From Lytechinus pictus (lineage: Eukaryota), in assembly GCF_037042905.1 (NCBI RefSeq), contig NC_087251.1, positions 22,198,001-22,262,000 of the forward strand: a stretch of 64,000 nt of DNA, in the 5' to 3' direction. The notes below the pieces were generated by a model. That model saw nothing but the letters and a program-made list of their open reading frames with translations, was not told the DNA's origin and searched no databases. The position numbers and the translations under genes are program-made. This document shows, piece after piece, positions 35,654 to 64,000 of this stretch (position 1 is its first letter; the number at the start of each line of letters is the position of its first letter).

Positions 35654-35661
35654 CTGTAATA

Positions 35662-37671: not shown

Positions 37672-37714
37672 CTGTTAATTGGTGTAAGAAAAGAAGCATC
37701 CATTTGCAGGCATT

Positions 37715-40184: not shown

Positions 40185-41618
40185 CTTGATTCTAGGAAAG
40201 CAAAGACAGATGATTATTTATGCTAGGAATATTCATTCTTCAACAACTTCCTATTAAATATCATTCAGGCCTGTGGATATGCGGGGGTGGGTGGTAGTGC
40301 TGGGCAATAATTTGATAATTATGCAATAATTAAAAATTATATATTGAATATTCAATAATGGTTTAATGATTATGTTGATATATATCACGGTAACACAATA
40401 TGACCAAAATACTGCTGATTATGAAAAGTTACTGGTAATCAATATTTATTAACCAAAATGCTGTTTTGTATTGCTTTAAACCAACTCAGAACTTTGTATG
40501 TCGGAACCCAAATGACCGCTTTTCATGGATAAGCACCAACGTAAGCAGCCTTACTTTCATTTTCCCCTTCCCTGCTCTCAAGGAATTACAGCTCATAAAG
40601 AACATATAGAGTCTATCCAACAAAATTTTCAGACTCTTGTGATAATGTCACAAACAAAATTATGCCATTGAAAATTAAACATTAAAAAACTCTGACAAAA
40701 AAAATGCCAGAGATTTATATGGCAAAATTTTTATGCAACGGTCCCCAGGATCAGTACATTTTAGTTACACTTACTGATGTCAAAATTTCATTTTGGGTTA
40801 GATCTAGATCCAACAGTTACTTCACTTTAGAAAATTAATACATGCAACATAGAAAGATATTCAGTAAAAAATCCAACTGGTGGAAAATAATGAATTTTTG
40901 GCATTTCATGTGAAGACCTCAAAATGCAGTCTTTCTCATCAAAATCCCTGAATTGTGTGTAAAAAGAATGGGTGCCAAGACATGGGGCACCATCTTCATG
41001 ATCTTTTTGTTATCTGCAAATGACTGGCCAAGGTTTTTTCCAGAAAATACTATATTTCTCTCTAACTTTTATGAGACTTTTCAGGCCCTGGGAACGACTG
41101 GGGGTGTTGATGTAAATTTGAGAAGCAAAAAAAAAAAAGTTTCACTAATTTTTCACTACAAAATGAAGGTTATTTCTGTCCCGAGAAATTAGATAGGTAA
41201 AAAAAGGTTTTCAAAATATTTGGTCCTTTTGCTTACATTTCTCAATTTTTAAACACCTACCAGAAAGCATGGCAGTGCAGCACCCCGCCTTCCAGGGCCA
41301 TAGAAACTTTTTGGCATAGATCTACTTACTTATAATTGAATATATTTTGTGAAATAAAAAAAATCATGATGAGAGTCTAGATTTAAGTCTAATTAAAACA
41401 ACTTTTAGAATGTAACGCAACTTCCAACTTGATTGTCCACTGTTAAAATTAGACAAGTGCTAAATAATAATTAGATCTATAATATAACTAGACCAAAAGC
41501 ATGAAAAGCATCGGTCTCTGTTTCTGTTATATTGGTTGTTCCGCTGACTTCTGTTGGCTCCACTCACCAATTAAAGAGACCGAAGTTCTAACTCAATGGC
41601 CATATGTTTATGTATTAA

Positions 41619-42013
41619 AGAGAAATTCCACTAGTTGCAGTAAACACTGATTTCATGAGAAAGTCTGTAAAACCAGGCTTAATTGTCAGTATATCATCGA
41701 GGATCTAGATCTGGTACAGTTACATAAACTGAACTTTGTGAAATCTTGAAATCTACGCTGAAAAATGTTCAGACTGAACTTCCCCAACACAGATAAGCGC
41801 ACGTGGGACAGTGTATAATTATTGCTTTGAGCGTCGGGCCCGACACTCTACCCGAATCCTGTGCTTATTTGCTGATTTCTCAGCAATTACACAATTTCTT
41901 CCAGAATCCTTTGGCACATGCGTTTTATTTATACAAACAGACACTTTGGTGGTCATTTCATTGGATTCTGTACGAACTCATTTTGAAATCGTTACCAAAA
42001 CTAGCATTTACCT
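41619..42013. mobile_element. Kolobok-like MITE (TTAA TSD), second family, copy 2
   Basis: TTAA at 41615-41618 and 42014-42017; homologous to 35109-35494. Confidence 0.8.
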
Positions 42014-43244
42014 TTAAGTTTGGATAAACGTTTGGATAAACCAGGGAACTGGGAGTTGCGCGACAGCCAAAGTAAGTCACTGTTTTTTTTCCTTTTATTT
42101 TTCCCCCGTTTTGGTGCATTTCAGGCCTAAACGGAATAGAGTAATCTTTATTTTGGTCCAGTTCTTTTTATATATTTTTTAAATCAAATTAAGACAGTCG
42201 GGGGGATTTTGCATTTGTTAACCCCGGAATGGTAATTTTAAGGTAAGATTCGTGATATTTGTCGGCCAATGCAAGTATTTTTTTCATCTAAGTTAGCACT
42301 GCTCATGATATTGTCGCGTCTTGTTGTAGCTGGGCTACGATAACAAAGACGGCAAGATGGCTTTGGGCTCAAAACCCTAAAGAAAACAAGTATTTTGGAG
42401 CAACATTATTGTTGCCAAAATACTCTGTGCATGTAGAACAATCGCATCTCGTACCTGGCTCTGTGGAGATTAAGCACGTCAGTGATATGACATTAATCTC
42501 CAGGAGCCTCCTCCTGGTTATGCCAGCTGTCTTGGTCTAACTTTACTGCAGCCCAAACACAGTACTTAGCCTAAATAACAGTTAGAGTTAGACATCTAAC
42601 TTGTTACTAAGTATATTTTACTAACGTTAAATACCGGTAGTTGAGCCGAATGAGAATCCCAGAGGCTAATGTCTATCAATATCTGGATGTAATACAGTGC
42701 AGGACCGTTAGGTAAAATGCACCGGGTTAGGAGAGGGCACAAATGAGTTTAGTTGAAACGAAGGTGGCTTACTTCGATCTTGGCTTTAAACACCTCTGGT
42801 GATCCTAGTACTGCTGACAACTTCGTTAGGGAGTTGATTCCCGGCCAACGTTGCATTCACAAAAAGAGAGTTTTTGAACTGCTTTGTGTTACTATGTCTT
42901 CATTGAGTTATTTGTTACTTGTCTTTCTACCATATTTGTTGCATCAAAGTTTACAAATTTCTTAGCTTTGATATTACATTTACTGATTTAGGTCTTGCTT
43001 TAATTAGAAATTTATCAACAGGAAGGGCAGAAACCAACCCCTTGACCACTTTGAAGTAGGATGGAAGTTTCAGGACTTGGCGTCTTGAGCAGTTGAGGCA
43101 AGAGTAGGCAGGTTGAGATTGATAGAAATGCATGCAAATGGAGAAAAACCAAATGAGGGAGTCTCACTCTCACGAGTCTCATGAGTCAAAAAAAAAAAAA
43201 ATGACTGTCTTCGAGAGTTGGCAGCCCTACCTGGCTAAAATTAA

Positions 43245-44006
43245 CCCAGGACTCGTCCGTGTAACATTAGGCAGAGGGCACTCTCCAAAATGGGGTAGAA
43301 TGGGGTCGCAATAGCACCCAAAAAAAAACAAGGGGAACAAATAAATCATGCACTTACCTCAATTATAATATGGATGAAGGTCTATCATGACACAAAATCT
43401 TGACATTGAGGCACAAACTGGACCCTCAAAAAAAGAGGAAAAGTTCTGTCTCTTCGTTCTCCTTCTTTCATGCAGGCTCGCACTAACACACTACCGTCGG
43501 TGAATGGGGATGATCGTAAAATATCAGAAATTGTTGAATAAATCCCCAGAAACGACGGTTATTCCTGTCTAGGAAAGAAGTAAAACTTTGTGTAAAGTAA
43601 GAATATTAATTTTAATTGTTTTTAAAGATCGTGATGTTGCATAAATTTTATATTTTCCTCCCATAAAATCCCACCTTTGTCACTCGGAGTATCAGATCGA
43701 GTTTACGGCCTCGAATTTCGGATAGGTGGAGCGTAGTGTAGTGGTTGTGAAGTGGAGTCTGCACGAACTTCGCTCGAGGTAGATAGATCGATACCGTCAC
43801 CGAGAACGCGACATGGACTCTAACTTTTCCTTTTATTTTTGAGGGTTCAGTTTGTGCCTCTATGTCAGGATTTTGTGTCAAGATAGACCTGAGGTAAGTA
43901 CATAATTAATTTTTTCACCTTCTATTTGGAGTGCTATTGCGACCCCATTCTAACCCATTTTGGAGAATACCCATGTCTGCCTCGTATTACACGGACGAGT
44001 CCCGGG
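43245..44006. mobile_element. Long-TIR (~200 bp arms) MITE, possibly piggyBac-like
   Basis: CCCAGGACTCGTCCGTGTAA...ATGGGGTCGCAATAGCAC...GAGGCACAAACTG is inverted at 43820-44006; TTAA on the left side only. Confidence 0.65.
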
Positions 44007-45111
44007 CTCCGCGGGCCGTAACCCAGGGAGCTCCCTGGGTTAGGTACCATGCTTACGGTACCGTTGCCCCGGGGACCTCGACACAACGTCTTTAAATAAA
44101 GCTAAATAAATGACAGTAGTTGCAGTAAAATACTGATTTTGTGAGAAAGTCTGTAAAACCAAGGTTCAGTATTACTATATCATCGTGGATCTAGATCTGG
44201 TACAGTTACATAAACTGAACTTTGTGAAATCATAATATCTAAGCTAAACAAGTGGAACGCCTCTGGCAGTCTCGCCTGCATTACGCGATTTAATATAGCA
44301 GCAGTGCTAACTTTGAAAACTACTATAAAATAATCATTCACAAAAACACCATTCATATAATGACATAATACCACATTCATTGACCATAGATGACATTTGA
44401 ACGGTGACTTAAGACTTGTCAACTACACCCATGTCCACATTTCATTCACTCTATCCATAAACTTTCAAAGTTAATGATTGGCAATTCAACAATTACCCCA
44501 ACATGGCCTAAGTTTATTGACCTTAACTGACCTTTGACCTTGGTTTTGTGACCTGAAACTCACAGGGGATGTTCAGTGATACTTGATTAATCTTATATCC
44601 CAAGTTTTATGAAATAGATCCATAAACTTCATAGTTAGGATGGTAATTCAACAAATACCCCCAACACGGCCAAAGTTCATTGACCTTAACTGACCTTTGA
44701 CCATGGTCATGTGACCTGAAACTCGTACAGGATGTTCAGTGATACTCGATTACTCTTATGTCCAAGTTTTATGAACTAGATCCATAAACCTTCAGAGTTA
44801 GGATGGTAATTTAACAAAGACCCCCAACACAGCCAAAGTTCATTCACCTTAAATGACCATTGACCATGGTCATGTGACCTGAAACTTGCACAGGATATTC
44901 AGTGGTACTTGATTAACCTAATGTCCAAGTTTCATGGACTAGGTCCATATACTTTTTCTAAGTTATGATGTCATTTCAAAAACTTAACCTTCGGTTAAGA
45001 ATAGATTTTGAAAATAATTCTCCCAACATACATGGTCTAAGTTCATTGACCCTAAATGACCTTTGACCTTAGTCATGTGACCTGAAACTCAGGCAGGATG
45101 TTTAGTAATAG

Positions 45112-45351
45112 TAGGATGGGGGGTCGGGTGTCCGGACACTTTAATATTTTGAAGCCTTCTTTTTTGTATTTGGATTACACTAAAAATATGAATTCAATAC
45201 TTGTAATCATCTTCTATTTTGTTCTTTATAATATTTCCTAACATTTTGTACTAAAAATTTATGAAACTTCGCTTGTAAATTTTTCCAAATGACTTTCTAA
45301 AATTGATCGTCCGGACACACAACCTGTCCGGACACACAACAACTGGGTATA
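45112..45351. repeat. ~240-bp interspersed repeat copy 2, inserted in HINE B
   Basis: Highly similar to 15057-15297; interrupts the HINE core unit. Confidence 0.8.
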
Positions 45352-45523
45352 CTTCATACCTTATGTCCAAGTTTCATGAACTAGGTCCATATACTTTCTA
45401 AGTTATGATATCATTTCAAAAACTTAACCTTAGTTAGGTTAAGATTTGATGTTGACGCCGCCGTCGGAAAAGCGGCGCCTATAACTCATTATAAGGCTAT
45501 AGTCTCGCTCTGCTATGGCTATG

Positions 45524-46408
45524 CCACTCCTAGTAACAATGAGGTCCAAACATTACATGTATGGACCTCATAGGCGACATCACTAGTATTTTTGGTTAGA
45601 AATCTCTGAGAACAGGATATTTCTATATTATATCACAAGTACAAGCTATATTCCTTTCTCTTATTTAAATTATAATTTTATAGTGTAAATGCATCGTTAG
45701 CAACAACAAAAAATGAAAGAAATGAAGGGGAACTTACATTTTCACGGCTTTTTCCTGATTTTCTGGGCAGTTGCTCTTCACTTCTGACTCGCGATCGAAG
45801 CTGATATGAAGATCACGTGATTCGCGTTCTCGTCAGCTGATCGGTTGATTATTCTTTTTGTCAGACGTTAATAATATATATTTTATAATGCTAGCATTCA
45901 TCGCTAATTTAGGTGAAAGAGATTGAAGTTAAACAGGGCCAGGTCGGAATCATAATTATTTTGGAAGAGTGTATTTATACACTCGATCTCATACCTGACG
46001 TAGACGGTACTATTCAACAAATGCACAATCTTCAATATAAAAAATAAAACAGAAAGAACGCCTTGAACACAGGCCAAAATGCCTAACGATTTCTCCGCGG
46101 CATTAACAACTATCGTAAAGGGCGCTCCATTTATTAATAAAGATGGACGTATAGCCGTCTATGGCGACAAAATTTGCCGCAAATATTTACGAAGAATTGT
46201 GAGAAATGGTCTGAAAATGCAACAAAAGAACCGGTGAGTACCGATTAAACATTATCAATTTATTTAATAGAACATACCGTATTTTATGACTAGAGTTTAA
46301 CAATTTCTAGATAATATTGCTTAGTTCTAAGCTAGGGCGGCCCAAATGCGCGTGAGTGGAGTCCCAGTTTATTAACGCGGGTAAGTATTGGGGTGTCGCC
46401 TAGAGTGG
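45524..46408. mobile_element. 885-bp TIR element with 6-bp TSD inserted in the HINE B terminal hairpin
   Basis: Termini CCACTC..TAGGCGACA / TGTCGCCTAGAGTGG; GCTATG at 45518-45523 and 46409-46414. Confidence 0.7.
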
Positions 46409-47009
46409 GCTATGCAGGCGAGACAAAAACGTTCACACTGAATATCACCAACACAGATAGGCACACATGGGACAGTGTATTATTATTGCTGGAATAAAGA
46501 CCCGACGCCGACGGAAGTGACAGAATCCGCGCATATTTCTCAGCAATTAATTACACAATTTCTTCCAGAATCCTTTGGCACATATTTTTTATTCATACAA
46601 ACAGACACTTTGGTGATCATTATATTAAGGTAATCCTGGGTTTTAGGGGCGTAAAATATCTGTATACATTACCGGCCTCTAACTTCAGCAAATCATCCCA
46701 GCATAGTATGGACGGCTAAAAGGGCAAATATTCAAATATGATTGAGCTGTTTTCATCATTTTTGTCTCGCATGTTATAGCTGGATCTTTTCTTGAAACTT
46801 TGGCATTAGGGCAATCAAGTTTCACTGACCGAGTAGAAGGTCACATGATCAAGGTCAAAGGTCATTTAGGGTGAAAATTTTAACAAATAATTGTATTTTC
46901 CCCAAGAAATTTCAATGTAAGGGTAATTGAGTTTTACTTTTTAATATCAACTTATTGCTGGTCACCTGAACAAGGTCAAAGGTCATCTTAATTCGAGGGG
47001 ATTTGGCTT

Positions 47010-49790
47010 GAAAGGGGGAGGGGGTTCTTCAAAGTACCCTACATTTTAGTGGAAAGGGGATCAAATTGGCCTTTATATATATTGCACCTACTGGGTTTGA
47101 GGGGTATAAATTATGTTTTGGCTTAAGGAGGGGGGGGGGGGTACTTCCAAGAACTCTACATTTCAGTGGAGAGGGATCAAATTGGCCTGTATTATATTAC
47201 CTAATTGTACCTACTGGGTTTTAGGGGCATAAACTATTTTCTGGCTTGAGGGGGGGGGGGGTACTTCCAAGAACCCTACATTTAATTGGAGAGGGGATGA
47301 AATTGGCCTATATATATTACCGTATTGTACCTACTGGGTTTTAGGGGCATAAACTATTTTTTGGCTTGAGGGGGGGGGGTACTTCTAAGAACCAAACATT
47401 TAATTGGAGAGGGGATAAAATTGGCCTATATATATTCCCGTAATGTACCTACTGGGTTTTAGGGGCATAAACTATTTTTTGGCTTGAGGGGGGGGGGTAT
47501 ACTTCCAAGAACCCTACATTAAATTGGAGAGGGGATGAAATTGGCCTATATATATTACCGTATTGTACCTACTGGGTTTTAGGGGCATAAACTATTTTGG
47601 GGATTTGAAGGGGGGGTACTTCCAAGAACCCAACATTTAATTGGAAAGGGGATGAAATTGGCCTATATATATTACCATATTGTACCTACTGGGTTTTAGG
47701 GGCATAAACTATTTTTTGGCTTGAGGGGGGGGGGGGTTCTTCCAAGAACGCTACATTTAATTGGAGAGGGGATGAAATTGGCCTATATATATTACCGTAT
47801 TGTACCTACTGGGTTTTAGGGGCATAAACTATTTTTTGGCTTGAGGGGGGGGGGAAGGTACTTCCAAGAACCCTACATTTGAGTGGAGAGGGGATGAAAT
47901 TGGCCAATATATATTGCACCTTCTGGGTTTTAGGGGTATAAACTATTTTTTTGCTTGAGGGGGGGGGGTACTTCCAAGAACCAAACATTTAATTCGAGAG
48001 GGGATGAAATTGGCCTATATATATATTGCACCTACTGGGTTTTAAGGGTATGAACTATTTTCTGGGCCTGAGGGGGGGGGGGTACTTCCTAGAACCCTAC
48101 ATTTAATTGGAGAGGGAATGAAATTGGCCTATATATATTACCGTATTGTACCTACTGGGTTTTAGGGGCATAAACTATTTTAGGGACTTGAATGGGGGGG
48201 GGGGGGGGGTACTTCCAAGAACCCTACATTCAATTGGAGAGGGGATGAAATTGGCCTATATATATTACCGTATTGTACCTACTGGGTTTTAGGGGCATAA
48301 ACTATTTTTGGCTTGAGGGGGGCCGGGGGTACTTCCAAGAACCAAACATTTAATTGGAGAGGGGATGAAATTGGCCTATATATATTACCGTATTGTACCT
48401 ACTGGGTTTTAGGGGCATAAACTATTTTTTGGCTTGAGGGGGGGGGGGGGGGGAAGGTACTTCCAAGAACCCTACATTTGAGTGGAGAGGGGATGAAATT
48501 GGCCAATATATATTGCACCTTCTGGGTTTTAGGGGTATAAACTATTTTTTTGCTTGAGGGGGGGGGGTACTTCCAAGAACCAAACATTTAATTCGAGAGG
48601 GGATGAAATTGGCCTATATATATATTGCACCTACTGGGTTTTAAGGGTATGAACTATTTTCTGGGCCTGAGGGGGGGGGTACTTCCTAGAACCCTACATT
48701 TAATTGGAGAGGGAATGAAATTGGCCTATATATATTACCGTATTGTACCTACTGGGTTTTAGGGGCATAAACTATTTTAGGGACTTGAATGGGGGGGGGG
48801 GTACTTCCAAGAACCCTACATTCAATTGGAGAGGGGATGAAATTGGCCTATATATATTACCGTATTGTACCTACTGGGTTTTAGGGGCATAAACTATTTT
48901 TGGCTTGAGGGGGGCCGGGGGTACTTCCAAGAACCAAACATTTAATTGGAGAGGGGATGAAATTGGCCTATATATATTACCGTATTGTACCTACTGGGTT
49001 TTAGGGGCATAAACTATTTTTTGGCTTGAAGGGGGGGGGGGTTCTTCCAAGAACGCTACATTTAATTGGAGAGGGGATGAAATTGGCCTATATATATTAC
49101 CGTATTGTACCTACTGGGTTTTAGGGGCATAAACTATTTTTTGGCTTGAGGGGGGGGGGGGTACTTCCAAGAACCCTACATTTAATTGGAAAGGGGATGA
49201 AATTGGCCTATATATATTACCGTATTGTACCTACTGGGTTTTAGGGGCATAAACTATTTTAGGGATTTGAAGGGGGGGGGGGTACTTCCAAGAACCCAAC
49301 ATTTAATTGGAAAGGGGATGAAATTGGCCTATATATATTACCATATTGTACCTACTGGGTTTTAGGGGCATAAACTATTTTTTGGCTTGAGGGGGGGGGG
49401 GGGATTCTTCCAAGAACGCTACATTTAATTGGAGAGGGGATGAAATTGGCCTATATATATTACCGTATTGTACCTACTGGGTTTTAGGGGCATAAACTAT
49501 TTTTTGGCTTGAGGGGGGAGGTACTTCCAAGAACCCTACATTTGAGTGGAGAGGGGATGAAATTGGCCTATATATATTGCACCTACTGGGTTTTAGGGGT
49601 ATAAACTATTTTTTGGCTTGAGGGGGGGGGGGTACTTCAAAGAACCAAACATTTAATTCGAGAGGGGATGAAATTGGCCTATATATATTACCGTATTGTA
49701 CCTACTGGGTTTTAGGGGCATAAACTATTTTTTGGCTTGAGGGGGGGGGGGTACTTCCAAGAACCCAACATTTAATTGGAGAGGAGATAA
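47010..49790 (+). repeat. ~120-bp tandem satellite, left arm (~23 units)
   Basis: Unit AAATTGGCCTATATATATTACCGTATTGTACCTACTGGGTTTTAGGGGCATAAACTATTTTTTGGCTTGA(G)nTACTTCCAAGAACCCTACATTTAATTGGAGAGGGGATG. Confidence 0.97.
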
Positions 49791-49964
49791 AATTTCCTAT
49801 TAAACAGCCTGAAAACATAAATAATACAGCTCTTCTAATGTTTTCTATGTTGATGAATTCATTTATGACAGTAATTTTCCATTTTAACCAATGCCTTAAT
49901 CAGAATTACTGGCTCAATGCACTAATTAACATCTATGTGCAATATATCAAGTATATATTCCTAT

Positions 49965-50235
49965 GACCGGTGTGTTGGCTCAGTTGGTAGAGCGTCCGTC
50001 TCACAACCGGGAGGTCGGGGGTTCAAACCCCGCCCGCGTCAGACCAAAAGACGTTAAAGATGGGAGTTGCTGCTACCCTGTTTGACGTTCAATGATTAAA
50101 GGGATAGAACCTCGTCAATCTGGTGCTGCACAGCGGCCGCCGGGCCCATGATCAATTGGGCATAGCAAATTTTCGGACTATTTCATTTCATGTCTATTTC
50201 GAACAATAAATTATGGATTTTCATTTTTTTTCATT
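49965..50235 (+). mobile_element. tRNA-derived SINE
   Basis: Box A TGGCTCAGTTGG and box B GGTTCAAACCC in a tRNA-like head (49965-50040); then body ACCAAAAGACGTTAAAGATGGGAG..., AATAAA and a (TTTCA)-like tail; acceptor stem imperfect. Confidence 0.8.
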
Positions 50236-50339
50236 TGTTCTATGTTAGTTTTATCGAGTGCGCCTGAAAAACATGAAAAATATATCACTAACATATGGTT
50301 AGTGGTAATTAAAATACAGGTGCAATACATATATTTCGT

Positions 50340-51220
50340 TGTCTCTGTATTTATATAGGCGCTGCTTTTCCGACGGCGGCGGCGACGGCAGCGTCGTCAA
50401 CATTGATATATAAAATAAGCAATGCCAATGTCATCATAACTTAGAAAGTATATGAACCTAGTTCATGAAACTGGGACATAAAAGTAATCAAGTATTACTG
50501 AACATCTTGCCTTAGTTTCAGGTCACATGACTAAGATCAATGGTCATTTAGGGCCAATGAACTAAGATCTTGTTGGGGGAATACATATCGAAATCTTAAC
50601 CAAGGATAAGTTTTTAAAATGTTGTCATAACCTAGAAAGTATATGGACCTAGTTCATTAAACTTAAACATAAAGGTAATCAAGTCATACTGAATACCCTG
50701 TCTTAGTTTCAGGTCACATGACCTAGGTCAAAGGTCACTTAGCGTCAATGAACTTTGACCATGCTGGGGGTATTTATGGAATTGTCATAACTTTAAAAGT
50801 TTATGGATCCACATGTAGTTAATGAAACTTGGACATAAGTGCAACCAGGGAAGTCCTGGTGCAACCATGTAGGCCGATCCCTGTATATCCTGTGCGCATG
50901 TCAGGTCAATTAAATGACCAAGATCAAAGGTAATGTAAGGTCAATGAACTTTGGCCATGTTGGGGGTATTTTTTAACTTGGCATCATATCTTAGAAAGTT
51001 TATGGATCTAGTTCATGAAACATAAACATATGGGTAATCAAGGATTGTTTTGCACACATGTTAGGTCACTTGATCATGGTCAAAGGCCATTTTGGATCGA
51101 TGGACATCATATGAATTCTTCTTACGTGAATATTTTATGCAATAGCTGTTTTCAAAGTCAAAACTGCTGCTATATCAAATCGCGTAATGCAGGCGAGACT
51201 GCCAGAGGCGATCCACTTTG
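50340..51220 (+). mobile_element. HINE/DINE-1-like element D (degenerate 5' end)
   Basis: GCTTTTCCGACGGCGGCGGCG, GGTCAAAGGTCA core units, 3' end ATGCAGGCGAGACTGCCAGAGGCGATCCAC. Confidence 0.75.
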
Positions 51221-51563
51221 ATTAGCTCATTATGTCAATCATTAAGCTAATTTTACAACATTAACATTGTTTAAATGAAATACGATATCATAAATGAATT
51301 CCTCGTCATAGAAAACTATGAAATAGCTGTATTATTTATGTTTTAGGGCATTTTTAAAATATAAAATGACAAAGGAATATATATTCATATGTAATTATAT
51401 TGGTAATTATGTTAATTAGCGCAGTATACTGATTGTGCTAATTACACAATAACATTTGTTTAACGGGGAAAATAATGTCACAAAAGAATTCTTCATCAAA
51501 GAAAACCATAGGATAGCTGTAATTGTTTATGTTTTCAGGCTTTCTCAATATAAAATGACAAAG

Positions 51564-51597
<34 letters not shown>

Positions 51598-52488
51598 CAG
51601 ATATATGTTAATTAGCGCATTATGCTAATTATACTAATTACGACAATTACATTGGTAAAAAGGGGGAAAATAATGTCAGAAATTAATTCCTCGTCATAGA
51701 AAACCATGGGATAGCTGTATTATTCATGTATTCGGACATTTTCGATATAAAATGACAAAAGAATGTATATATTGCACATATATGGTAATTAGCGCATTAT
51801 GCTAATTATGCTAATTACGACAATTACATTGGTAAGAAGGGAAAATAATGTCATAAATTAATTCCTCGCCATATAAAACTAGCTTAGGGTACATGTAGCT
51901 GTATTAATCATGTTTGCGGACATTCTCGATATGAAATGACAAAGAAATATATATTTTTATATGTATTACACATATACATATATATATATTAATTAGTGCA
52001 TTATGCTAATTATGTTAATTACAGCAATTTCATTGGTTAAAATTGAAAAATATGGTCATAAATGAATTCCTCGCTATAGAAAAACCCTTAAAGGGATGCA
52101 TTGTCTACGTATTGGGCATTTTTTGGATAGACATCCACAAATATACATATTGCACTTCAATGCTAATTAGCTCATTATGCTAATTGGGATTATTACGATA
52201 ATTGCATAACTTAAATATTTAAATTATTGCTTTAAATCGATTCCTCGTCACGGGACCTCTTAGTAAAATTACATTTTTTAAAAAATCTTTCTGGTTTAAG
52301 AGAAGTAGCATATTACATATCGTAATATGCTAATTAGATGATTATGCTAATTAGGCTAATAAAAATTGCTCAAGGTTACCAAGGTGGCAACCAAGCTGAA
52401 TTTACTTCAATACCCATCTAGAACACAAATCAACAAAAAAACCTTGTACTTAACAACTTTTCCAGTTTTGAAAAATTTCTACTGGACT
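51221..52488. repeat. Diverged AT-rich tandem repeats (roughly 180-200-bp spacing) ending in a TAGTCCAG (reverse) terminus; remnant of another long-TIR DNA transposon
   Basis: Repeated AATTAGCGCATTATGCTAATT..AATTCCTCGTCATAGAAAAC..ATAGCTGTATT; an inverted copy at ~49800-49950; ends ...CTACTGGACTA at 52489 (Academ-like TAG end is an inference). Confidence 0.55.
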
Positions 52489-52489
52489 A

Positions 52490-53840
52490 TCTCTCGTCTT
52501 TTCACATGAAAAAAACAGATGCTCGTAAGTTTCTTCAGTATTCCCACAAAACGAACATTCACTATCTGAGAAAATTTTGAATAAATGTAAATATTTCTTC
52601 GTGTATATTAATTAATAAAGCATTTTAAATTGAAAGTTTTGAAACTCTCTAAGCCTACTGCTTAGAGTACATTTTCTGGGTCTTGAAAATATAGCACAGA
52701 TATCTTTCGGAGAAATTATATGTCTTCTCTATATTATTAAACGCATACAATTTTTCCAATTTAAAGGAGAATGAAACTCTTGGAGCAAGTTAGCTTTTGT
52801 GAAAGCAGAAAAATCAAAGAATAAGATCAACAAAAGTTTGAGTAAAATAGGACTAGCAATAAAAGAGTTATGAGCATTTGAATGTCGAGATCACTAATGC
52901 TATGGAGATCCTCCCTTTGGCAATGCGACCAAGATCTGTGATGTCACACACGTACAACTCTCCAATTTGGACACTGAAAATATACCCCAAAACATCTCTT
53001 TTTGCTTATTCTAATCATATGACAAATGATTCATCAATGATATAATGTTGTGAAACCTCTGTACTTGTAATCTCATAAAGAGAACACCTCACATTGTGAT
53101 AGACTCTATAAAAGTGAGAATATAAGACTTTATAAGTGAAATAAGTACTAAAGTAATGAGGGAGTTGTACGTGTGTGACATCGCAGATCTTGGTCGCATT
53201 GCCGATATGAGGATCTACATGCCACTAGTGATCTCGTTATTCAAATGCTCATAACTTTCTTATTATTCATTCAATCTTCCTCAAACTTTCAACAATATGT
53301 TTCTTTGATTTTTCTCTTTGATGATTGATTCAGCTGGTTTCAAGGGTTTCATTGTCCTTTAATACTTAAAAAGTGCCTTGTATATTTTCTTGGATGTAAC
53401 GTTTGGTTAACTGTTAATCTTACAATTAAATATAAATTGTAGATTTAGACCAGTGTCTTCACAGTTGTCGTTTTTCTTCAAAAGGTGTTTCCATGTTGCT
53501 GGAATATTTTTTAAAACTTTGTAAACTTTATCTATTTCATTTCCATCTAACCCCATTTTCATAAAGTTTCTAGGAGATTTGATGATACTTTCCTTGTCAA
53601 CAATATGATGCAATTTATAATCTATATATTTTTAAGAAATGATTTTTCATCAAATAGCATTTGCCCGTTTAGTCCAATAAGTTTGTTGTTAAAAAATATC
53701 TCAAATGGAAAAAGGAAACGAATAGGATGAAACATTACTGAACCTTCTGGGGAAAACAAACAGTCATTATTATCAATGGCTCTTAATAGAGTGATCCGTT
53801 TCATTTGGAACAGAAGTGTAGGCTTTATGATTTCACTCAC
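52490..53840 (-). pseudogene. Degenerate 3' part of L1/Tx1-type LINE ORF2 (zf-RVT region and CCHC knuckle), interrupted by a MITE
   Basis: Minus-strand CSFCGNTEETYEHLFFSCEK at ~52557-52498; RLREFQNFQFK nearby; NIPATWK segment at 53407-53613. Confidence 0.75.
52765..53358. mobile_element. Kolobok-like MITE (TTAA TSD), copy 2 of the 14331 family
   Basis: TTAA at 52761-52764 and 53359-53362; near-identical to 14331-14913. Confidence 0.85.
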
Positions 53841-54484
53841 AATTTATGCAGGAACATGAAATCAATGTGTGCCATTGGTTGTGGTTTTTTATATCATACC
53901 TAGTTAGAACAAATAAAACATACAATGTTATCTCCAATCACTAATATAGCTCCCCCACCATTGGGCCTACATTATAAATGGGGAATAAAAATGAATAAAA
54001 CTGAATGTCATTTATATTTTCTGATATGTTTTATTTATTGTAATTATTGCATTATAAATTTTGTTGGAAAAATGAATAAATAAATAAATGAATGAATGAA
54101 ATGAAAAAGACGGATTAAGTGTAATCACTTCATTGAGTTAGATTCCATAAAAAAATGTTACTGATGGTCATCCATCCATGACACTTTCAATTCTTGTCAT
54201 AAGCAATTAATGTAAACATTTCAATATCATTCTATATTTATGCCAAATAGTATTAATGGCAAATTCTATCATTCTATATTGGCAAATAAACTGTACATAC
54301 CTGTACCTTTCTCCAATTAGGATATGGAGAGTTTTTTATCAGGGAAATGTCAACGCATAGGCATTTGGACGTGGATGGCCCAGGCTTCCTGATGCTTCAT
54401 CGATGACATCACCCCTTCAAAAATTATCACTCCATACCCCTGCATGGTTTCAGTTGTTACTCTATTATAAAAATTATCTTTTGA

Positions 54485-55475
54485 TAATTGACGACCAATA
54501 TCTTTACTCAGTATCGACTACAAAATTGCAGCTCGGGTTTTAGCGATGCGTTTACAGAAAATTTTATCATCATTAAACTGATCAATGTGGATCGGCATGC
54601 AAAAATGTTATGCTTGCTCAAGATATTATTGACTCTTAATTGTAAATTTAAAAGTTCCCGTGTCATTATTTTTTTTCAGATTTTCTAAAAGCATTCGACA
54701 ATGTGAACCACTCATTTCTGTTTAAAACATTAAAGTTTAAGGAATCGTTTATAAGTTGGACTAAGATGTTACATAAATATGCTCAAGGTAGAGTACTACA
54801 ATGCATGTGGTTGGTTATCAGAATAAAGGTGTAAGACAAGGGTGTCCATTGTCAGCATAGTGGTTTATTTTGTTTTCAGAGATTTTAGCAATTCGTATTA
54901 AAGAAAATGATAAAATCAGAGGTATAGATGTTTCAGGGTATTGTTTATGCTTACCACACAGAAAGATGAAAATAACACTGTTCGCAGACGATACGACGAT
55001 ATTCATTAATTCGATTAAATCCCTTCATAATATTATGAAAGAGCCCGGTGAAAGAGATAAATAATTCCGGTTCCAAAAGTTCCAAAGTAAATTGGAATAA
55101 GACAAACATGTTAAAAATAGGGATATTAAACTTAGAAAGATAAGAAGCGAGTTTGATTTTACCGATGATCCTGTTAAGTATTTAGGAATGTTTGTGTGGG
55201 GGGGGGGGGATGAAGAGTATGTAACGATATAATGATAAATATGAAATTTTTAATTGTGCCTCAAATCGTTTATGTTGGTACGTTTATTCCAATGCCAGAC
55301 TATGTATGCCAGGGTTTACATAAGATATGGAATTCAAAGCGTGAGAAAGTTAAACGTAATGTTTGTGTCAGACCGATAGTTGAAGGTGGTCTTGATATGA
55401 TCGATCTATATTCGAAATCAAAATCACTTATATTGTCTTGGATAAATTCCTTTTTAAAGAGGGATTTTGGGTAGA
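54485..55475 (+). pseudogene. Degenerate reverse transcriptase of an L1/Tx1-type LINE
   Basis: Frameshifted motifs RPISLLSIDYKIAARVLAMRL, DFLKAFDNVNH, KGVRQGCPLS, LFADDTTIF, KYLG, GGLDMIDL. Confidence 0.9.
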
Positions 55476-55856
55476 AATTGGCACTTAAATGGCACTTTAA
55501 AAATAGGCACTTACACGAGAAAGGGTTTTTCAGGCTCCTCCTAAGGTGAAAGGGGCATAGTACACGTTCATGATGGGACATTTTTATTGCGTAAAAAAGG
55601 GCACTTTTTCAATGCTTCATAAGATGGTGGACACTGTGCCCCTACCCCCCCCCCCCCGCATGACAGTAAAAAATCCGGCTCGCGATTTGCACTCGCATTA
55701 ATTGTTAAAACTATATTAACGCATGCATTTGATAAATACAAAAGTACACAAATCAAAAGGCCTTAATATCAACAAACTTCTTGCTCGTATTAGGCTTATT
55801 AGATTAATGAATACATAATAACATATTGATGAAATCCGAGTAATCGAATTTGCCCC

Positions 55857-56976
55857 TTTTTGTCTCACCTGCATAGCAGAGTGAGACTATAGGTGCCGCT
55901 TTTCCGACGGCGGCGGCGGCGGCGGCGGCGGCGGCGTCAACACCAAATCTTAACCTGAGGTTAAGTTTTTGAAATGACAGCATAACTTAGAAAGTATATG
56001 GACCTAGTTCATGAAACTTGGCCATAAGGTTAATCAAGTATTACTGAACATCCTGCCTGAGTTTCATGTCACATGACCATGGTCAATGGTCATTTAGGGT
56101 CAATGAACTTAGACCATGTTGGGGGAATCAACATCAAAATCTTAACCTAAGGTTAAGTTTTTGAAATGTCATCATAACTTAGAAAATATATGGACCTAGT
56201 TCATAAAACTTATACATAAGGTTAATCAAGTATCACTGAACATCCTGCATGAGTTTCACGTCACATGACCAAGGTCAAAGGTCATTTAGGGTCAATGAAC
56301 TTTGGCCGAATTGGGTGTATCTGTTGAATTACCATCATAACTTTAAAAGTTTATGGATCTGATTCATGAAACTTGGACATAATAGTAATCAAGTATTACT
56401 GAACATCCTGTGCGAGTTTCAGGTCACATGATCAAGGTCAAAGGTTATTTAGGGTCAATGAACTTTGGTCAAATTGGGGTATTTGTTGAATTACCGCCAT
56501 AACTTTTAAAGTGTGTTGGTCTAGTTCATAAAACTTGGACATAAGAGTAATCAAGTATCACTGAACATCCTGTGCGCATTTTAGGTCACATGACCAAGGT
56601 CAAAGGTCAATGAACTTTGGCCATAATGGGGGTATCTGTTGAATTACCATCATAACTTGGAAAGTTGATGGATCTTACTCTTGAAACTTGGACATAAGAG
56701 TAATCAAGTATCACTGAACATCCTGTGCGAGTTTCAGGTCACATGATCAAGTTCAAAGGTCATGTAAGGTCAATGAACTTTGGCCACATTGGGGGTATTT
56801 GTTGAATTACCATCATATTTCTATAAGTGTATGGGTCTAGTTCATAAAACGTGGAAATAAGAGTAACCAAGTATCACTGAACATCTTGTGCGAGTTATAG
56901 TAGTTTTCAAAATCAGCACTGCTGCTATATTGAATCGCGTGATGCAGGTGAGACGGCCAGAGGCATTCCACTTGTT
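55857..56976 (+). mobile_element. Intact HINE/DINE-1-like element C
   Basis: TTTTTGTCTCACCTGCATAGCAGAGTGAGAC 5' hairpin; (GGC)n; about 6 core units; 3' ATGCAGGTGAGACGGCCAGAGGCATTCCACTTGTT. Confidence 0.85.
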
Positions 56977-57060
56977 AAGAATTGGAAATCGACAAGTTTC
57001 ATCTCGCACTGAGAAAGAGGAATAGGAAGACAGTCATCATTTTTACATGGTTCCGCATAG

Positions 57061-59019
57061 CATAGGCGGATCCAGGGGGGGCTGAGGGGCCCGGCCCCCC
57101 CCCTATTGGCAGAGCAAAAAAAAAAGGAAAAAAAAGGGGAAAGAAAGAAAAAAAAGAAAAAGAGAGGACAAAAAAGGAGAAACATAAGAGGAGGAAGACG
57201 AGTGAATAAAAAAAGATGAGGGGAAGAGTTGGAAAATAATTTTAAAAGTATTTCATGTCACCATACAGTATAAAATTTTCGCTCGCGCTTCGCGCTTGCA
57301 TTGACTTTTAGGTGATTTCTATATATCTTGCTTAATACAGAGCTTAAGTATCAAATTTTGAAGTCAATATATAAAACATATTTCAGCTCGGAAATCGAAT
57401 TTTCATTATTTTATTTGATTTACAACTTGATTTTTAAAAAGTGCTCTGCAAAAATTTATGTTTTGTCTTCTGCGCACTCGCAAAATTTTATTTGTCAGAC
57501 AGAAGCGGATCCAGGGAGGCCCGAGGGATCCGCCCCCCCCCCCTATTGGCGGAGCAAAAAAGGAAAAAAAGGGGGAAAGAAAGAAAAAATAGAAAGAGAA
57601 GGGAAAAGAGAGGAGAAAAAAAGAAGAGAAACATAAGATGAGGAAGACGAGTGAATAAAATAAGAAGAGAGGAAGACCTGGAAAATAATAAAAAAACTTT
57701 CATGTAAGGATATAAAATTTTCGCTCGTGCTTCGCACTTGCATTGCCTTTGAGGTGATTTACATATCTTACGCAGTATGGAGCTTAAAATATTGAATTTT
57801 GAAGTCAATATACAAAACATATTTCAACTCAGAAATTTAACTTTCATTATTTTGTTTGATTTACAATTTTTTTTAAAACGTGCTCTGTAAAAATTTCTTG
57901 TTTTATGGTCTGAATATTAATATTTTCAGCTTGCGACGCGCTCGCAAAATTTGATTATTCAGGTACCTATTATTTTCCTGTACTCCATAAAGTTATCAAA
58001 ACTTAAGATCCCTATTCACGTCAGATTGTCAAAACGTATCGGCTAGCGCTGCATGCTCGCAATATGATTGGTGAGTACTAATTTTGAAACAAACTACTTA
58101 AAAATCCCAATTTGATGACAGTTTATCATAAATTTCGGCTCGTGATTTTCTCTCGCATTGATTGTTGAAAGATATTAACTCATGCATCTTATTCATAATT
58201 TCGAAAGTGCTTTAAAATAATGTCCACTTTTCAGGCCATAATATTATTAGATTTTGCGCTCTCATGCTTAGGAAGAGAAATAGGAAGATAGTCATCATTT
58301 TTATACGATGACATAATGTCTTTATAGAATGTCCCGGTCCTATGCCAAACTAAAAAAATGAAATATATCAGCTCTTTTAAACTGTGATCCATATCCACGA
58401 AACCTCACAATTTTCCTACAAAGTGCTTGAAATGCAGAGCTTAAATTGACCTTTTTGTCAGATCAGAATATCATATATTTTTAGCTCGGGCTTTGCGCTT
58501 GCTTTATTGATTTTCATGATAACAAAGGTATTTAGAATACCCAAATTCTAGGTCGAAATCTGAAACCCGAAATCTGAAATTCAGATACACAGGTTCTCTA
58601 TTTAAATCATTATCCAGTTTCAGATCACAATATAAAAAAACTGTCTGCTCGCGCTTTGCGCTCGCATTATTAATATAGGAAAATTTCAAGTTACTCATCC
58701 TTTTCATGATTTACAAAATATGAATAGAGTGTCAAAGTTGAGATTAAAATCTCGATTTTTTTTCAGCTCGCGCTTCGCGCTCGTATCAGTTATTTAGTTA
58801 TATACCTATCGTTTTCCATTCTTCAGGTAAAATTGTCAAAATTTTCAGCTCGCTCTTCGCACTTGATAGTTGAAATTTGTAACGTCCTCTTGGCTAAGAA
58901 GCTGCCGTTAACAGAATCTTTTTTTATCAGATCAAAGGGCATATAAAAAATTCTGCTCGCACTTAATAAGGCTTATGATATTATGTGAATATATATAGTC
59001 CTAATAGCTATATATATAC

Positions 59020-59095
<76 letters not shown>

Positions 59096-59240
59096 CTTGA
59101 TTTAGTGACTATGAGGACTATCCCTCAAAAGAAACAAAAAAAAAAATAAAAAAAAAAATTTCTTCGAGCAGCCGAACATGGATTTGGCTGAAAAAATTCC
59201 GGCCCCTCCCCCCTATTGGCGAAGGCTGGATCCGCCCCTG
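57061..59240. mobile_element. hAT-like non-autonomous element (CA..GGCGGATCCAG termini) with a duplicated left end
   Basis: CATAGGCGGATCCAG at 57061, second left end at ~57500, CTGGATCCGCCCCTG at 59226-59240; repeated GCTCGCGCTTCGCGCTCG motifs; TSD only approximate. Confidence 0.6.
59009..59093. repeat. (TA)n microsatellite
   Basis: Long TATATA run. Confidence 0.95.
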
Positions 59241-59744
59241 GTTACGCAATGTCCATAAAATGTTCAGGCCCTTGGTCTAAATAAATAATGTCAGCTCGCT
59301 CTTCGCGCTCGCATCATTTATAGAGTGTGATCCATATCCACTTCACAATTTTCCTACACAGTGCTTCAAATGGTGCTTAACTTTATGATTAAAAAAAGTG
59401 CGTAGAATATGAATTTGTTTAGTTCGAAATGTAAAACATTTTCAGCTTGCGCTGCTCGTTCGCGTTTTCCATCGTTGAAATATGGATCGTCTTATTGGCT
59501 ATCTGCAAACAGGTCCCTTTCGATCAGGCCAGAACGTACATTAAAATATTTTGCGCTCACACTGTTTGAATGGGGCGTATGAGATTATAAGGTTACAAGA
59601 ATAAAGCGAATACAAGAAGTGTCAATTACAACTACCCCTTTACCAATCGAGGAAAATATGGTTGAACAAATTTGTGCCCCCCCCCACATACTGGCAAAAG
59701 TTGGATCTGCCCCTGTACCAATGCGTCATCATGTGATTGAAAGC

Positions 59745-62700
59745 CAATAAAATAGTTTCTACCCCTAAAACCCAGTAGGTGCAATATATATAGCCCAATT
59801 TGATCCCCTCTCCACTCAAATGTAAGGTTCTTGGAAGTACCCCCCCCCCCTTCAAAGCCAAAAAATTGTTTATGCCCCTAAAACCCAGTAGGTACAATAC
59901 AGTAATATATATAGGCCAATTTCATACCCTCTCCAATTAAATGTAGCGTTCTTGGAAGAACCCCCCCCCTCAAGCCAAAAAATAGTTTATGCCCCTAAAA
60001 CCCAGTAGGTACAATATGGTAATATATATAGGCCAATTTCATCCCCTTTCCAATTAAATGTTGGGTTCTTGGAAGTACCCCCCCTTCAAATCCCTAAAAT
60101 AGTTTATGCCCCTAAAACCCAGTAGGTACAATATGGTAATATATAAAGGCCAATTTCATCCCCTCTCCAATTAAATGTAGCGTTCTTGGAAGTACCTCCC
60201 CCCCCCCTCAATCCAAAAAATAGTTTATGCCCCTAAAACACAGTAGGTACAATACGGTAATATATATAGGCCAATTTCATCCCCTCTCCAATTAAATGTA
60301 GCGTTCTTGGAAGAACCCCCCCCCTCAAGCCAAAAAATAGTTTATGCCCCTAAAACCCAGTAGGTACAATATGGTAATATATATAGGCCAATTTCATCCC
60401 CTTTCCAATTAAATGTTGGGTTCTTGGAAGTACCCCCCCTTCAAATCCCTAAAATAGTTTATGCCCCTAAAACCCAGTAGGTACAATACGGTAATATATA
60501 TAGGCCAATTTCATCCCCTCTCCAATTTAATGTAAGGTTCTTGGAAGTACCCCCCCCCCCTCAAGCCAAAAAATAGTTTATGCCCCTAAAACCCAGTAGG
60601 TACATTACGGTAATATATATAGGCCAATTTCATCCCCTCTCCAATTAAATGTAGCGTTCTTGGAAGAACCCCCCCCCCCCTCAAGCCAAAAAATAGTTTA
60701 TGCCCCTAAAACCCAGTAGGTACAATATGGTAATCTATATAGGCCAATTTCATCCCCTTTCCAATTAAATGTTGGGTTCTTGGAAGTACCCCCCCCCCCT
60801 TCAAATCCCTAAAATAGTTTATGCCCCTAAAACCCAGTAGGTACAATACGGTAATATATATAGGCCAATTTCATCCCCTCTCCAATTAAATGTTGGGTTC
60901 TTGGAAGTACCCCCCCCCCTTCAAATCCCTAAAATAGTTTATGCCCCTAAAACCCAGTAGGTACAATACGGTAATATATGTAGGCCAATTTCATCCCCTC
61001 TCCAATTAAATGTAGGGTTCTTGGAAGTACCTCCCCCCCCCCCTCAATCCAAAAAATAGTTTATGCCCCTAAAACACAGTAGGTACAATATAGTAATATA
61101 TATAGGCCAATTTCATCCCCTTTCCAATTAAATGTTGGGTTCTTGGAAGTACCCCCCCCCCTCAAGCCAAAAAATAGTTTATGCCCCTAAAACCCAGTAG
61201 GTACAATATGGTAATATATATATAGGCCAATTTCATTCCCTCTCCAATTAAATGTTGGGTTCTTGGAAGTACCCCCCCCCCCTTCAAATCCCTAAAATAG
61301 TTTATGCCCCTAAAACCCAGTAGGTACAATACGGTAATATATATAGGCCAATTTCATCCCCTCTCCAATTAAATGTAGGGTTCTTGGAAGTACCCCCCCC
61401 CTTCAAATCCCTAAAATAGTTTATGCCCCTAAAACCCAGTAGGTACAATATGGTAATATATATATAGGCCAATTTCATTCCCTCTCCAATTAAATGTTGG
61501 GTTCTTGGAAGTACCCCCCCCTTCAAATCCCTAAAATAGTTTATGCCCCTAAAACCCAGTAGGTACAATACGGTAATATATATATAGGCCAATTTCATTC
61601 CCTCTCCAATTAAATGTTGGGTTCTTGGAAGTACCCCCCCCCCCCCTTCAAATCCCTAAAATAGTTTATGCCCCTAAAACCCAGTAGGTACAATACGGTA
61701 ATATATATAGGCCAATTTCATCCCCTCTCCAATTAAATGTAGGGTTCTTGGAAGTACCTCCCCCCCCCCCCTCAATCCAAAAAATAGTTTATGCCCCTAA
61801 AACCCAGTAGGTACAATACGGTAATATATATAGGCCAATTTCATCCCCTCTCCAATTAAATGTAGCGTTCTTGGAAGAACCCCCCCCCCCCTCAAGCCAA
61901 AAAATAGTTTATGCCCCTAAAACCCAGTAGGTACAATATGGTAATATATATAGGCCAATTTCATCCCTTCTCCAATTAAATGTAGGGTTCTTGGAAGTAC
62001 CCCCCCCCCCTTCAAATCCCTAAAATAGTTTATGCCCCTAAAACCCAGTAGGTACAATATGGTAATATATATATAGGCCAATTTCATTCCCTCTCCAATT
62101 AAATGTTGGGTTCTTGGAAGTACCCCCCCCCTTCAAATCCCTAAAATAGTTTATGCCCCTAAAACCCAGTAGGTACAATACGGTAATATATATAGGCCAA
62201 TTTCATCCCCTCTCCAATTAAATGTAGGGTTCTTGGAAGTACCTCCCCCCCCCCCCTCAATCCAAAAAATAGTTTATGCCCCTAAAACCCAGTAGGTACA
62301 ATACGGTAATATATATAGGCCAATTTCATCCCCTCTCCAATTAAATGTAGCGTTCTTGGAAGAACCCCCCCCCCCCCCCTCAAGCCAAAAAATAGTTTAT
62401 GCCCCTAAAACCCAGTAGGTACAATATGGTAATATATATAGGCCAATTTCATCCCCTTTCCAATTAAATGTTGGGTTCTTGGAAGTACCCCCCCTTCAAA
62501 TCCCTAAAATAGTTTATGCCCCTAAAACCCAGTAGGTACAATACGGTAATATATATAGGCCAATTTCATCCCCTCTCCAATTTAATGTAGGGTTCTTGGA
62601 AGTACCCCCCCCCCCTCAAGCCAAAAAATAGTTTATGCCCCTAAAACCCAGTAGGTACATTACGGTAATATATATAGGCCAATTTCATCCCCTCTCCAAT

Positions 62701-63210
62701 TAAATGTAGCGTTCTTGGAAGAACCCCCCCCCCTCAAGCCAAAAAATAGTTTATGCCCCTAAAACCCAGTAGGTACAATATGGTAATATATATAGGCCAA
62801 TTTCATCCCCTTTCCAATTAAATGTTGGGTTCTTGGAAGTACCCCCCCCTTCAAATCCCTAAAATAGTTCATGCCCCTAAAACCCAGTAGGTACAATACG
62901 GTAATATATATAGGCCAATTTCATCCCCTCTCCAATTAAATGTAGCGTTCTTGGAAGAACCCCCCCCCTCAAGCCAAAAAAAATAGTTTATGCCCCTAAA
63001 ACCCAGTAGGTACAATACGGTAGTATATATATAGGCCAATTTGATCCCTCTCCACTGAAATGTAGAGTTCTTGGAAGTACCCCCCCCCCCTCCTTAAGCC
63101 AAAACATAATTTATACCCCTCAAACCCAGTAGGTGCAATATATATAAAGGCCAATTTGATCCCCTTTCCACTAAAATGTAGGGTACTTAGAAGAACCCCC
63201 CTCCCCCTTT
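59745..63210 (-). repeat. ~120-bp tandem satellite, right arm (~29 units), inverted relative to 47010-49790
   Basis: Reverse complement of the left-arm unit (GCCCCTAAAACCCAGTAGGTACAAT...). Confidence 0.97.
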
Positions 63211-64000
63211 CAAGCCAATTCCCCTCGAATTAAGATGACCTTTGACCTTGTTCAGGTGACCAGCAATAAGTTGATATTAAAAGTAAAACTCAATTACCCT
63301 TACATTCAAATTTCTTGGGGAAAATACAATTATTTGTTAAAATTTTCACCCTAAATGACCTTTTGACCTTGATCATGTGATCTTCAACTCGGTCAGTGAA
63401 ACTTGATTGCCCTAATGCCAAAGTTTCAAGAAAAGATCCAGCTATAACATGCGAGACAAAAATGATGAAAACAGCTCAATCATATTTGAATATTTGCCCT
63501 TTTAGCCGTCCATACTATGCTGGGATGATTTGCTGAAGTTAGAGGCCGGTAATGTATACAAATATTTTACGCCCCTAAAACCCAGGATTACCTATATTAA
63601 ATTATGTGAAAACTCATTTTGTCTTTTTAAGTTTTTTGAGATCGTCCCCACAACTGGAATTTATCTTTAAAAGTTTAAGCTCGAGTCTTGACAAAAAAAA
63701 AACACATCACCAAAAGCCTCTCACTCAGTGACTCAGTCCTGCTGGACTAACATGACTAACTATAAAGTCAGTCAGACTACCAAATGACATGTATGAAATC
63801 GAAATTAATGGTATTTTACCCCGATTTTAGTGCAGGAAGCTGTGTCTTTTGCGCGTTCCCTCGCACCGTCGAGCTGATCTTCACAGGAATAGGAACCGGA
63901 CTGGACTGCTTACGGCGTCTACAGCAGTTACGGTACATACACACAAGTTCAATGGGATTATCACACTCCTGTGATACAGCCACTCAAATTGCACAGGGGG

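Follow-up and report, generated by a model that had tools for sequence, protein, structure and literature searches.

A probable 17-kb foldback transposon with satellite arms in the first intron of CDKAL1 in Lytechinus pictus

We analyzed a 64,000-nucleotide stretch of Lytechinus pictus DNA (NCBI RefSeq assembly GCF_037042905.1, contig NC_087251.1, positions 22,198,001 to 22,262,000 of the forward strand; hereafter the window) and identified an insertion of 16,964 bp with GG...CC ends at 46629-63592, within the first intron of CDKAL1. The best explanation, to which we give a probability of about 0.7, is one 17-kb insertion of a non-autonomous cut-and-paste foldback transposon, mobilized in trans by a transposase that is probably of the Merlin type. 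Such an element would be a tidy and probably young example of a gene-less DNA transposon that grows satellite arrays in its arms and moves 17 kb at once. The insertion more than triples the length of the intron in this housekeeping tRNA-modifying gene of a sea urchin used in the laboratory.

Ends, target-site duplication, and arms

The left terminus, GGTAATCC, lies at 46629 and the right terminus, GGATTACC, at 63592. When the flanks were compared at lengths from 4 to 13, a direct repeat was identified only at length 8, TATATTAA, representing the target-site duplication (TSD). From flank composition, such an 8-mer would arise by chance at a given site with a probability of ~1e-4, and since it is not self-complementary, it is no by-product of the symmetry of the arms. 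The insertion lies within a miniature inverted-repeat transposable element (MITE), for which we computed the empty site by joining the flanks without the element and one TSD. This empty site aligned through the junction to 2 paralogues of the host MITE, with 160/195 matches to the left and 46/57 to the right for the paralogue at 41761-42021, and 135/183 to the left and 47/53 to the right for the paralogue at 35258-35498. When the right flank was shuffled 500 times, no shuffled version equaled the real score against either paralogue. The host MITE is continuous through the junction, and the element therefore represents one insertion.

Contigs from 4 of 18 public runs (X1, X12, X15, and X17) were compared with positions 63225-64000. 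No run contains half of the words of this segment, and the results concern the pieces and loose ends listed, beyond which there are 673 further pieces and 80 further loose ends. In each of the 4 runs, pieces terminate at 63592. Loose ends were identified behind this position in 3 X15 contigs (agreement 0.54) and 4 X1 contigs (agreement 0.66), and their consensus starts with A in both runs giving one. The contig stops and differing flanks place the end at the CC at 63592 and thus give a TSD of 8 bp, and the low agreement of the loose ends indicates that further copies with different flanks exist. Organisms A and B (runs X1 and X12) have common substitutions and an 8-base insertion in the terminal inverted repeat (TIR), and over 114 bases at the host exon, X1 shows 10 letter differences and 5 gaps. 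The ends of the family are therefore also present in related organisms. RNA editing was rejected as the source of an A>G difference at 63561 found in all 4 runs, since G is the base of the left TIR and the difference is thus an allele. Summed depth of X1 near the tip was far above exon depth, although depth here is no measure of copy number, and positions 63693-63770 were uncovered in the runs; neither this gap nor the lack of a bridging contig was counted as a sign of an empty site.

The outer, nonrepetitive domains of the 2 arms are inverted copies with 4 mismatches and 2 gap columns over 373 columns (98.4%), and 7 mismatches and 5 gap columns over 569 columns when extended (97.9%). Further inward, both arms consist of tandem arrays of a 120-bp satellite, which are oppositely oriented and 91.5% identical over 3,237 columns in reverse pairing. 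Tandem Repeats Finder placed the right array at 59783-63209 (period 120, 28.6 copies), and the left array includes a five-unit higher-order duplication (units 8-12 vs 13-17). A 15-bp motif at nucleotides (nt) 8-22 of each end, at 46636 on the left, has one copy in each unit, oriented alike, giving 24 matches on the plus strand (the tip and 23 units) and 30 on the minus strand (the tip and 29 units). It is thus present in the 2 tips and all 52 satellite units, with no match in the 56,967 bases outside. Tip and satellite unit are equal at 22 of 24 positions. A motif common to the tip and every unit links the satellite to the end of the element, and its distribution suggests a likely transposase site repeated along the arrays.

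The 2 arrays have a common variant pool but expanded separately in each arm. Mirror units across the arms have 1 difference in the first unit and 4 in the second; beyond the second unit, they differ by 2-12, which is typical of cross-arm pairs in general (mean of 7.3 differences in 105 columns). The periodicity minimum was at lag 5 in the left array and lag 3 in the right array. The nearest neighbor of 47 inner units was in their own arm only for 33, in the other arm only for 4, and tied for 10, and 8 cross-arm unit pairs had no difference at all. The satellite unit folded worse than 198 of 200 shuffles, indicating no structured unit. We also noted a 95-bp stretch within the outer TIRs (46781-46875 and 63345-63440) that is 72-76% like the 163-bp repeat of the Helitron-like elements in the window, and part of that family may thus have been incorporated into the TIR.

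A sequence-only reading of the window had proposed a foldback with GG...CC termini and a perfect 8-bp TSD, near-identical inverted outer arms, opposed arrays of the same ~120-bp satellite, and a host MITE resuming past the right TSD of a single insertion, all of which our alignments bear out. Its suggestion of a family with other copies agrees with the differing flanks of the ends in X15 and X1 contigs, and its view that such copies carry cargo and disperse the satellite is conjectural. Its figure of one mismatch in the first ~120 bp was correct as to near-identity but understated, as there is one mismatch in the first 206 bp. CDKAL1 as the host gene and an alternative AG...CT reading of the ends, weighed below, lie beyond its account.

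The middle, proposed mechanism, and alternatives

The middle of the element (49795-59736; 9,942 bp) contains recognizable repeat pieces, and its longest stop-free frame is at most 111 amino acids (aa). The earlier claim that the interior holds only transposable-element pieces is right about the repeat pieces, but "only" is unproven, with 2,600 of 9,942 bp matching the rest of the window. As these are repeat matches only, a local origin of the middle was rejected. No transposase (DDE) family was identified with Pfam profiles among 125 stop-free segments of the interior and left TIR, including neither DDE_Tnp_IS1595 nor the transposase of Mutator-like elements (MULE), as expected for a non-autonomous copy and in line with the sequence-only reading. 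Interior matches to MASE5, Cyclin, C1_1, and other families fell below the cut-off and were dismissed as weak. The left and right inner junctions have no common inner domain, and on the left, an arm belonging to an older, 197-bp-unit repeat is cut exactly where the 120-bp array stops. Given its decayed and nested pieces, unmatched junctions, and few matches in the window, the middle looks like old DNA from elsewhere. It appears old, with 197-bp units 70-80% alike, nested insertions, and a broken long interspersed nuclear element (LINE), in contrast to young ends with TIRs at 98%. We consider it fairly probable that the middle was taken up before this jump and carried along passively.

In the mechanism we propose, a transposase encoded elsewhere in the genome would act in trans, binding the motif (nt 8-31) at both ends plus the 52 array repeats, and binding along the arrays would help to pair 2 ends lying 17 kb apart. 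The transposase would cut at GG...CC, excise the 17 kb, and, with target cuts staggered by 8 nt, reinsert it at an AT-rich position in the old MITE. The arrays probably began as a duplicated piece of the end and then grew separately in each arm by unequal exchange or slippage, and the 10-kb middle was probably acquired through deletion or a repair template switch before this jump. A more far-reaching version, a Merlin-driven "pack" foldback family in Lytechinus in which each 120-bp unit would serve as a transposase site, 2 one-ended arms would lift ~10 kb of any genomic DNA between them, with different cargo per copy, and the family would shuffle host DNA and seed the satellite genome-wide, is speculative and in our view rather unlikely. 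If the driver is Merlin and the cargo differs between copies, host-DNA capture would be added to a little-studied superfamily, and it could be tested directly whether additional binding sites in the satellite arms compensate for the cost of size.

Published work is given here and below as it stands in excerpts of the cited papers. The Merlin signature consists of GG ends and a TSD of 8-9 bp (PMC8101967), and terminal 5'-GG and an 8-bp TSD were both found here, in one copy. The original description of Merlin gives TIRs of 24-462 bp, and Repbase includes Merlins with 1000-bp TIRs (PMC8101967); the outer domain of 373 bp lies inside the former range, with whole arms of 3.2-3.9 kb. Merlin-type proteins of Strongylocentrotus purpuratus are given in the supplement of the same paper (PMC8101967). 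The features of the foldback class, long inverted arms composed of an outer domain plus tandem repeats, a TSD, and dispersed ends, are also present, and this shape arises in several superfamilies, including Tm1 (Mutator) and Galileo (P; PMC3573991). On these sequence features, we would rate Merlin slightly above an even chance, Mutator/Rehavkus well below it, and any other superfamily as a small remainder. As no transposase was identified in this copy, it cannot be filed firmly as a Merlin member.

Several points weigh against a Merlin-driven transposon that moved with its cargo. As no transposase was identified, the superfamily rests on 2 bases and the length of the TSD in one copy, and since the Pfam test took segments of at least 36 aa (30 in the TIR), a badly decayed transposase would escape it. 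Most foldbacks are said to be of the Mutator type (PMC4079207). Only one full copy was observed, from which we infer the movement of cargo, and since the identity of the TIRs may reflect conversion, "young ends" provide no clock. The tip motif has 0.93 substitutions per column vs a unit average of 2.86 but ranks only 23rd of 91 windows, leaving its special conservation within units unsupported. Two interior elements are 94-96% identical to paralogues in the window and could postdate the jump. Finally, no contig among those listed in the 4 runs crosses the junction at 63592, and the locus is without independent read support.

The same anatomy could belong to a Mutator/Rehavkus-type foldback, with a MULE transposase leaving an 8-bp duplication at this site, which we hold to be possible but distinctly short of even odds. 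MULE ends often start with G, and Tm1 is a Mutator foldback; however, Tm1 and typical MULEs leave 9-bp TSDs, and here 8 fits and 9 fails, with the end fixed at 63592. Satellite arrays in inverted termini, some >11 kb, are known from Rehavkus (PMC12581902), and a TSD of 8 bp falls within the 8-10 bp range of Tetris, a foldback assigned to Mutator (PMC4079207), whereas GG together with 8 bp is the signature stated for Merlin (PMC8101967). A doubtful alternative with regard to the cargo is that a shorter foldback inserted first and the 10-kb middle arrived later in place and never moved, either by break repair at the palindrome center from an ectopic template or as piled-up nested insertions. The absence of a matching inner domain at the junctions, the left one cutting an older repeat as repair would, is consistent with a later arrival, as are the 2 interior elements close to window paralogues and the arrays that diverged separately per arm, showing that the element was remodelled. 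Simple piling-up after a recent insertion does not fit, however, as large parts of the middle are decayed and nested several times over; a 10-kb templated fill would be a long tract; and a perfect TSD and TIRs that differ from contigs of other samples by 0-4 per 51-157 bases also speak against it.

Pairing continues for one base beyond each end and leaves matching flanks of 6 bp, so that AG...CT ends with a 6-bp duplication are formally possible and leave the empty site unchanged. The element would then be a gene-less dependant of another mobile group, presumably Polinton/Maverick-like, as we take these ends and this duplication to be the signature of that group. The shared terminal T would, however, shift the stop of the contigs to 63593, whereas pieces from each of the 4 runs terminate at 63592 and, in the 2 runs with a loose-end consensus, its first base is A instead of T; we regard this reading as scarcely credible. 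Mis-assembly, with the inverted structure produced by a read folding back or by joining across the satellite, would agree with the lack of listed contigs bridging the junction but is very improbable. The arms mirror each other only over the TIR and ~1.5 units, with inner order and periodicity differing, and arms unlike inside are unlike a fold-back artefact. Such an artefact would not create an 8-bp duplication within a continuous host MITE, and the join of CDKAL1 exons across the element is collinear.

Satellite-armed foldbacks in other genomes

The TU elements of Strongylocentrotus purpuratus are sea-urchin foldbacks with tandem-repeat arms and an 8-bp duplication, one class of which has unlike middles of dispersed repeats. 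They are ~3 kb long with 15-bp units, compared with 17 kb and 120-bp units here, and were reportedly the subject of Liebermann et al. 1983.

Among zebrafish Merlins with arrays near both ends, Merlin-2_DR (Repbase) is at least 13.6 kb long with 79-bp arrays of 12.5 and 9.7 copies, Merlin-N5_DR has 113-bp arrays of 5.2 copies twice and a TIR given as 1000 bp, and Merlin-1_DR also belongs to this set (PMC8101967). The Lytechinus element resembles them in its large size, tandem arrays near both ends, GG ends, and a TSD in the 8-9-bp range (PMC8101967). In contrast, its arrays reach 2.8 and 3.5 kb and its middle is repeat debris, whereas Merlin-2_DR keeps a DDE domain. This comparison is by table description, and the table as excerpted gives neither orientation nor sequence of the arrays (PMC8101967). 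Merlin has also been proposed to spread proto-satellites (PMC8101967), and TIRs are described as a usual source of satellites (PMC9659126).

Tetris of Drosophila virilis is likewise a noncoding foldback with an outer nonrepetitive domain, an array, and a variable middle in that order, with 8-9-bp TSDs in complete copies and a stretch common to the repeat unit and the outer domain (PMC4079207). Unlike Tetris, whose TIRs reach up to 1.7 kb and include an inner domain, the arms here are 3.2 and 3.9 kb and have none (PMC4079207). Tetris seeded a satellite; repeated transposase sites have been proposed for it, and secondary binding sites were reported for Galileo (PMC4079207). Rehavkus of Tribolium has satellite arrays as long inverted termini with up to 50 units, and these arrays have been suggested to spread through transposition and to make transposase binding stronger (PMC12581902). 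Its central part is conserved, in contrast to the mixed genomic middle here (PMC12581902), and it has been grouped with MULE (bioRxiv 10.1101/2021.09.26.461848). Galileo of Drosophila also has long TIRs with tandem repeats that expand independently per arm and hold secondary binding sites, but it belongs to the P superfamily, with a 7-bp TSD and TIRs of up to ~1.3 kb (PMC3573991).

No description of this foldback family was found in the literature searched, which included few subscription papers and neither the TU papers nor Repbase reports. The satellite-armed foldback architecture and the idea of satellite seeding are already published, and the suggestion of a possibly uncatalogued, satellite-dispersing family in the sequence-only reading therefore overrated novelty: satellite-armed, satellite-spreading foldbacks are in print (PMC4079207; PMC12581902), and array-bearing Merlins are tabulated (PMC8101967). 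The Merlin-like label it gave to the ends holds for GG and the 8-bp TSD but is weakened by the missing transposase and by the assignment of Tetris, with TSDs of 8-10 bp, to Mutator (PMC4079207).

CDKAL1, feature coordinates, and the rest of the window

Minus-strand exons in the window matched the TIGR01578 and UPF0004 profiles, and the top echinoderm protein match was the Lytechinus pictus threonylcarbamoyladenosine tRNA methylthiotransferase (CDKAL1). The tblastn pieces span 20870-40184; 3 were 100% identical and the others 80-98%, the lower values probably due to alignment extending into introns. One X15 contig (2,876 bases) matched 63820-64000 without differences and continued with letters equal to 40162-40191. 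The intron defined by this join starts with GT and ends with AG on the minus strand, and would be 6,656 bp without the element, which occupies 17 of 23.6 kb of this first intron, in the 5' untranslated region (UTR). CDKAL1 pre-mRNA of a carrier would have a 3.2-kb inverted stem around a 10-kb loop. The coordinates of all features are given in Table 1.

Table 1. Features of the 17-kb element, its host MITE, and CDKAL1 in the window
Feature	Position	Strand	Basis
CDKAL1 coding exons, 12 tblastn pieces, start codon at 40184	20870..40191	-	none within element
CDKAL1 intron before first coding exon, 23,628 bp, GT..AG	40192..63819	-	contig join
Host MITE, first piece	44108..44251	+	123/143 to paralogue at 41623
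Host MITE, second piece, ends at insertion	46425..46620	+	alignment to paralogues
Left TSD, 8 bp	46621..46628	.	flank comparison
Left outer TIR domain, nonrepetitive, GG start	46629..47001	+	arm alignment
Left 120-bp tandem array, 23.5 units	47002..49794	+	Tandem Repeats Finder, period 120
Cut-off inverted arm of older 197-bp-unit repeat	49790..50330	-	abrupt start at left inner junction; short interspersed nuclear element (SINE) inside
tRNA-derived SINE, 5-bp flanking repeat	49966..50239	+	tRNA-like head 49969-50041, 43.9 bits
Helitron-like element, 163-192-bp internal repeats	50354..51218	+	center of 197-bp foldback
Forward arm of older 197-bp-unit repeat	51218..52493	+	units 70-80% alike
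LINE relic, zf-RVT domain	52453..52611	-	E 1.5e-7, passes cut-off
TTAA-flanked MITE	52764..53358	.	563/584 identical to 14330-14913
Decayed LINE reverse-transcriptase relic	54600..55480	+	RVT_1 E 0.019, 0.009, below cut-off
Second Helitron-like element	55857..56979	+	94-95% identical to copies at 24201, 28879
GGATCC-ended repeat cluster and (TA)n run	57062..59716	.	read from sequence; unclassified
Right 120-bp tandem array, 28.6 units	59737..63218	-	three-unit periodicity; innermost unit old, diverged type
Right outer TIR domain	63221..63592	-	arm alignment; 4/4 runs end at 63592
Right TSD, 8 bp	63593..63600	.	flank comparison
Host MITE, last piece, resumes past right TSD	63601..63672	+	alignment to paralogues
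CDKAL1 5'-UTR exon, extends past window	63820..64000	-	public contig

Within the middle, 49790-52493 represents a second, older foldback-like repeat with 197-bp units, with a Helitron-like element, which we take to be of the HINE type, in its center and its left arm cut. The end region of its forward arm (52200-52500) has no inverted partner in the window. The TTAA-flanked MITE is presumably of the Kolobok type, and the LINE reverse-transcriptase relic is split over 3 frames with many stops.

A 21-bp terminal pattern of the element had no match in viral contigs and none in metagenome contigs. An 18-bp satellite pattern matched 8 metagenome loci, with one match each, which we judged to be chance; BLAST of these loci against the arm gave pieces of 18-48 bp only, and no array or terminus was identified in the 3 loci inspected directly and the 4 scanned for repeats. 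In 2 metagenome contigs (L001, 2326-2347, and L005, 612-633), a single 22-base satellite match is embedded in the same sequence, which is oppositely oriented in the 2 contigs, and this match was also judged to be chance.

The host MITE carries a three-level nest in addition to the 17-kb element. An 883-bp element at 45525-46407 sits in the end of a Helitron-like element, itself within the same host MITE. The short inverted ends of this 883-bp element read CACT...AGTG, its 8-bp duplication (GGCTATGC) is perfect, and its inside is CpG-rich. In the same intron 1 of CDKAL1, inverted arms of ~200 bp (78%), both with splice-donor-like motifs, flank a CpG-rich, promoter-like 380 bp at 43245-44006. 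Other CDKAL1 introns harbor an 850-bp palindromic MITE that is 81% self-inverted (38441-39294, intron 2) and an array of 113/154-bp units with 92% matches (35744-36846). Long pyrimidine-rich low-complexity tracts at 10000-11700 and 26600-28000 give spurious F/L/S-rich open reading frames (ORFs) of up to 385 aa. Further, exon-like ORFs of a second gene, starting with MDESDEDVY..., were identified on the minus strand at 1633-4241, and we take them to resemble a ninein-like EF-hand protein.

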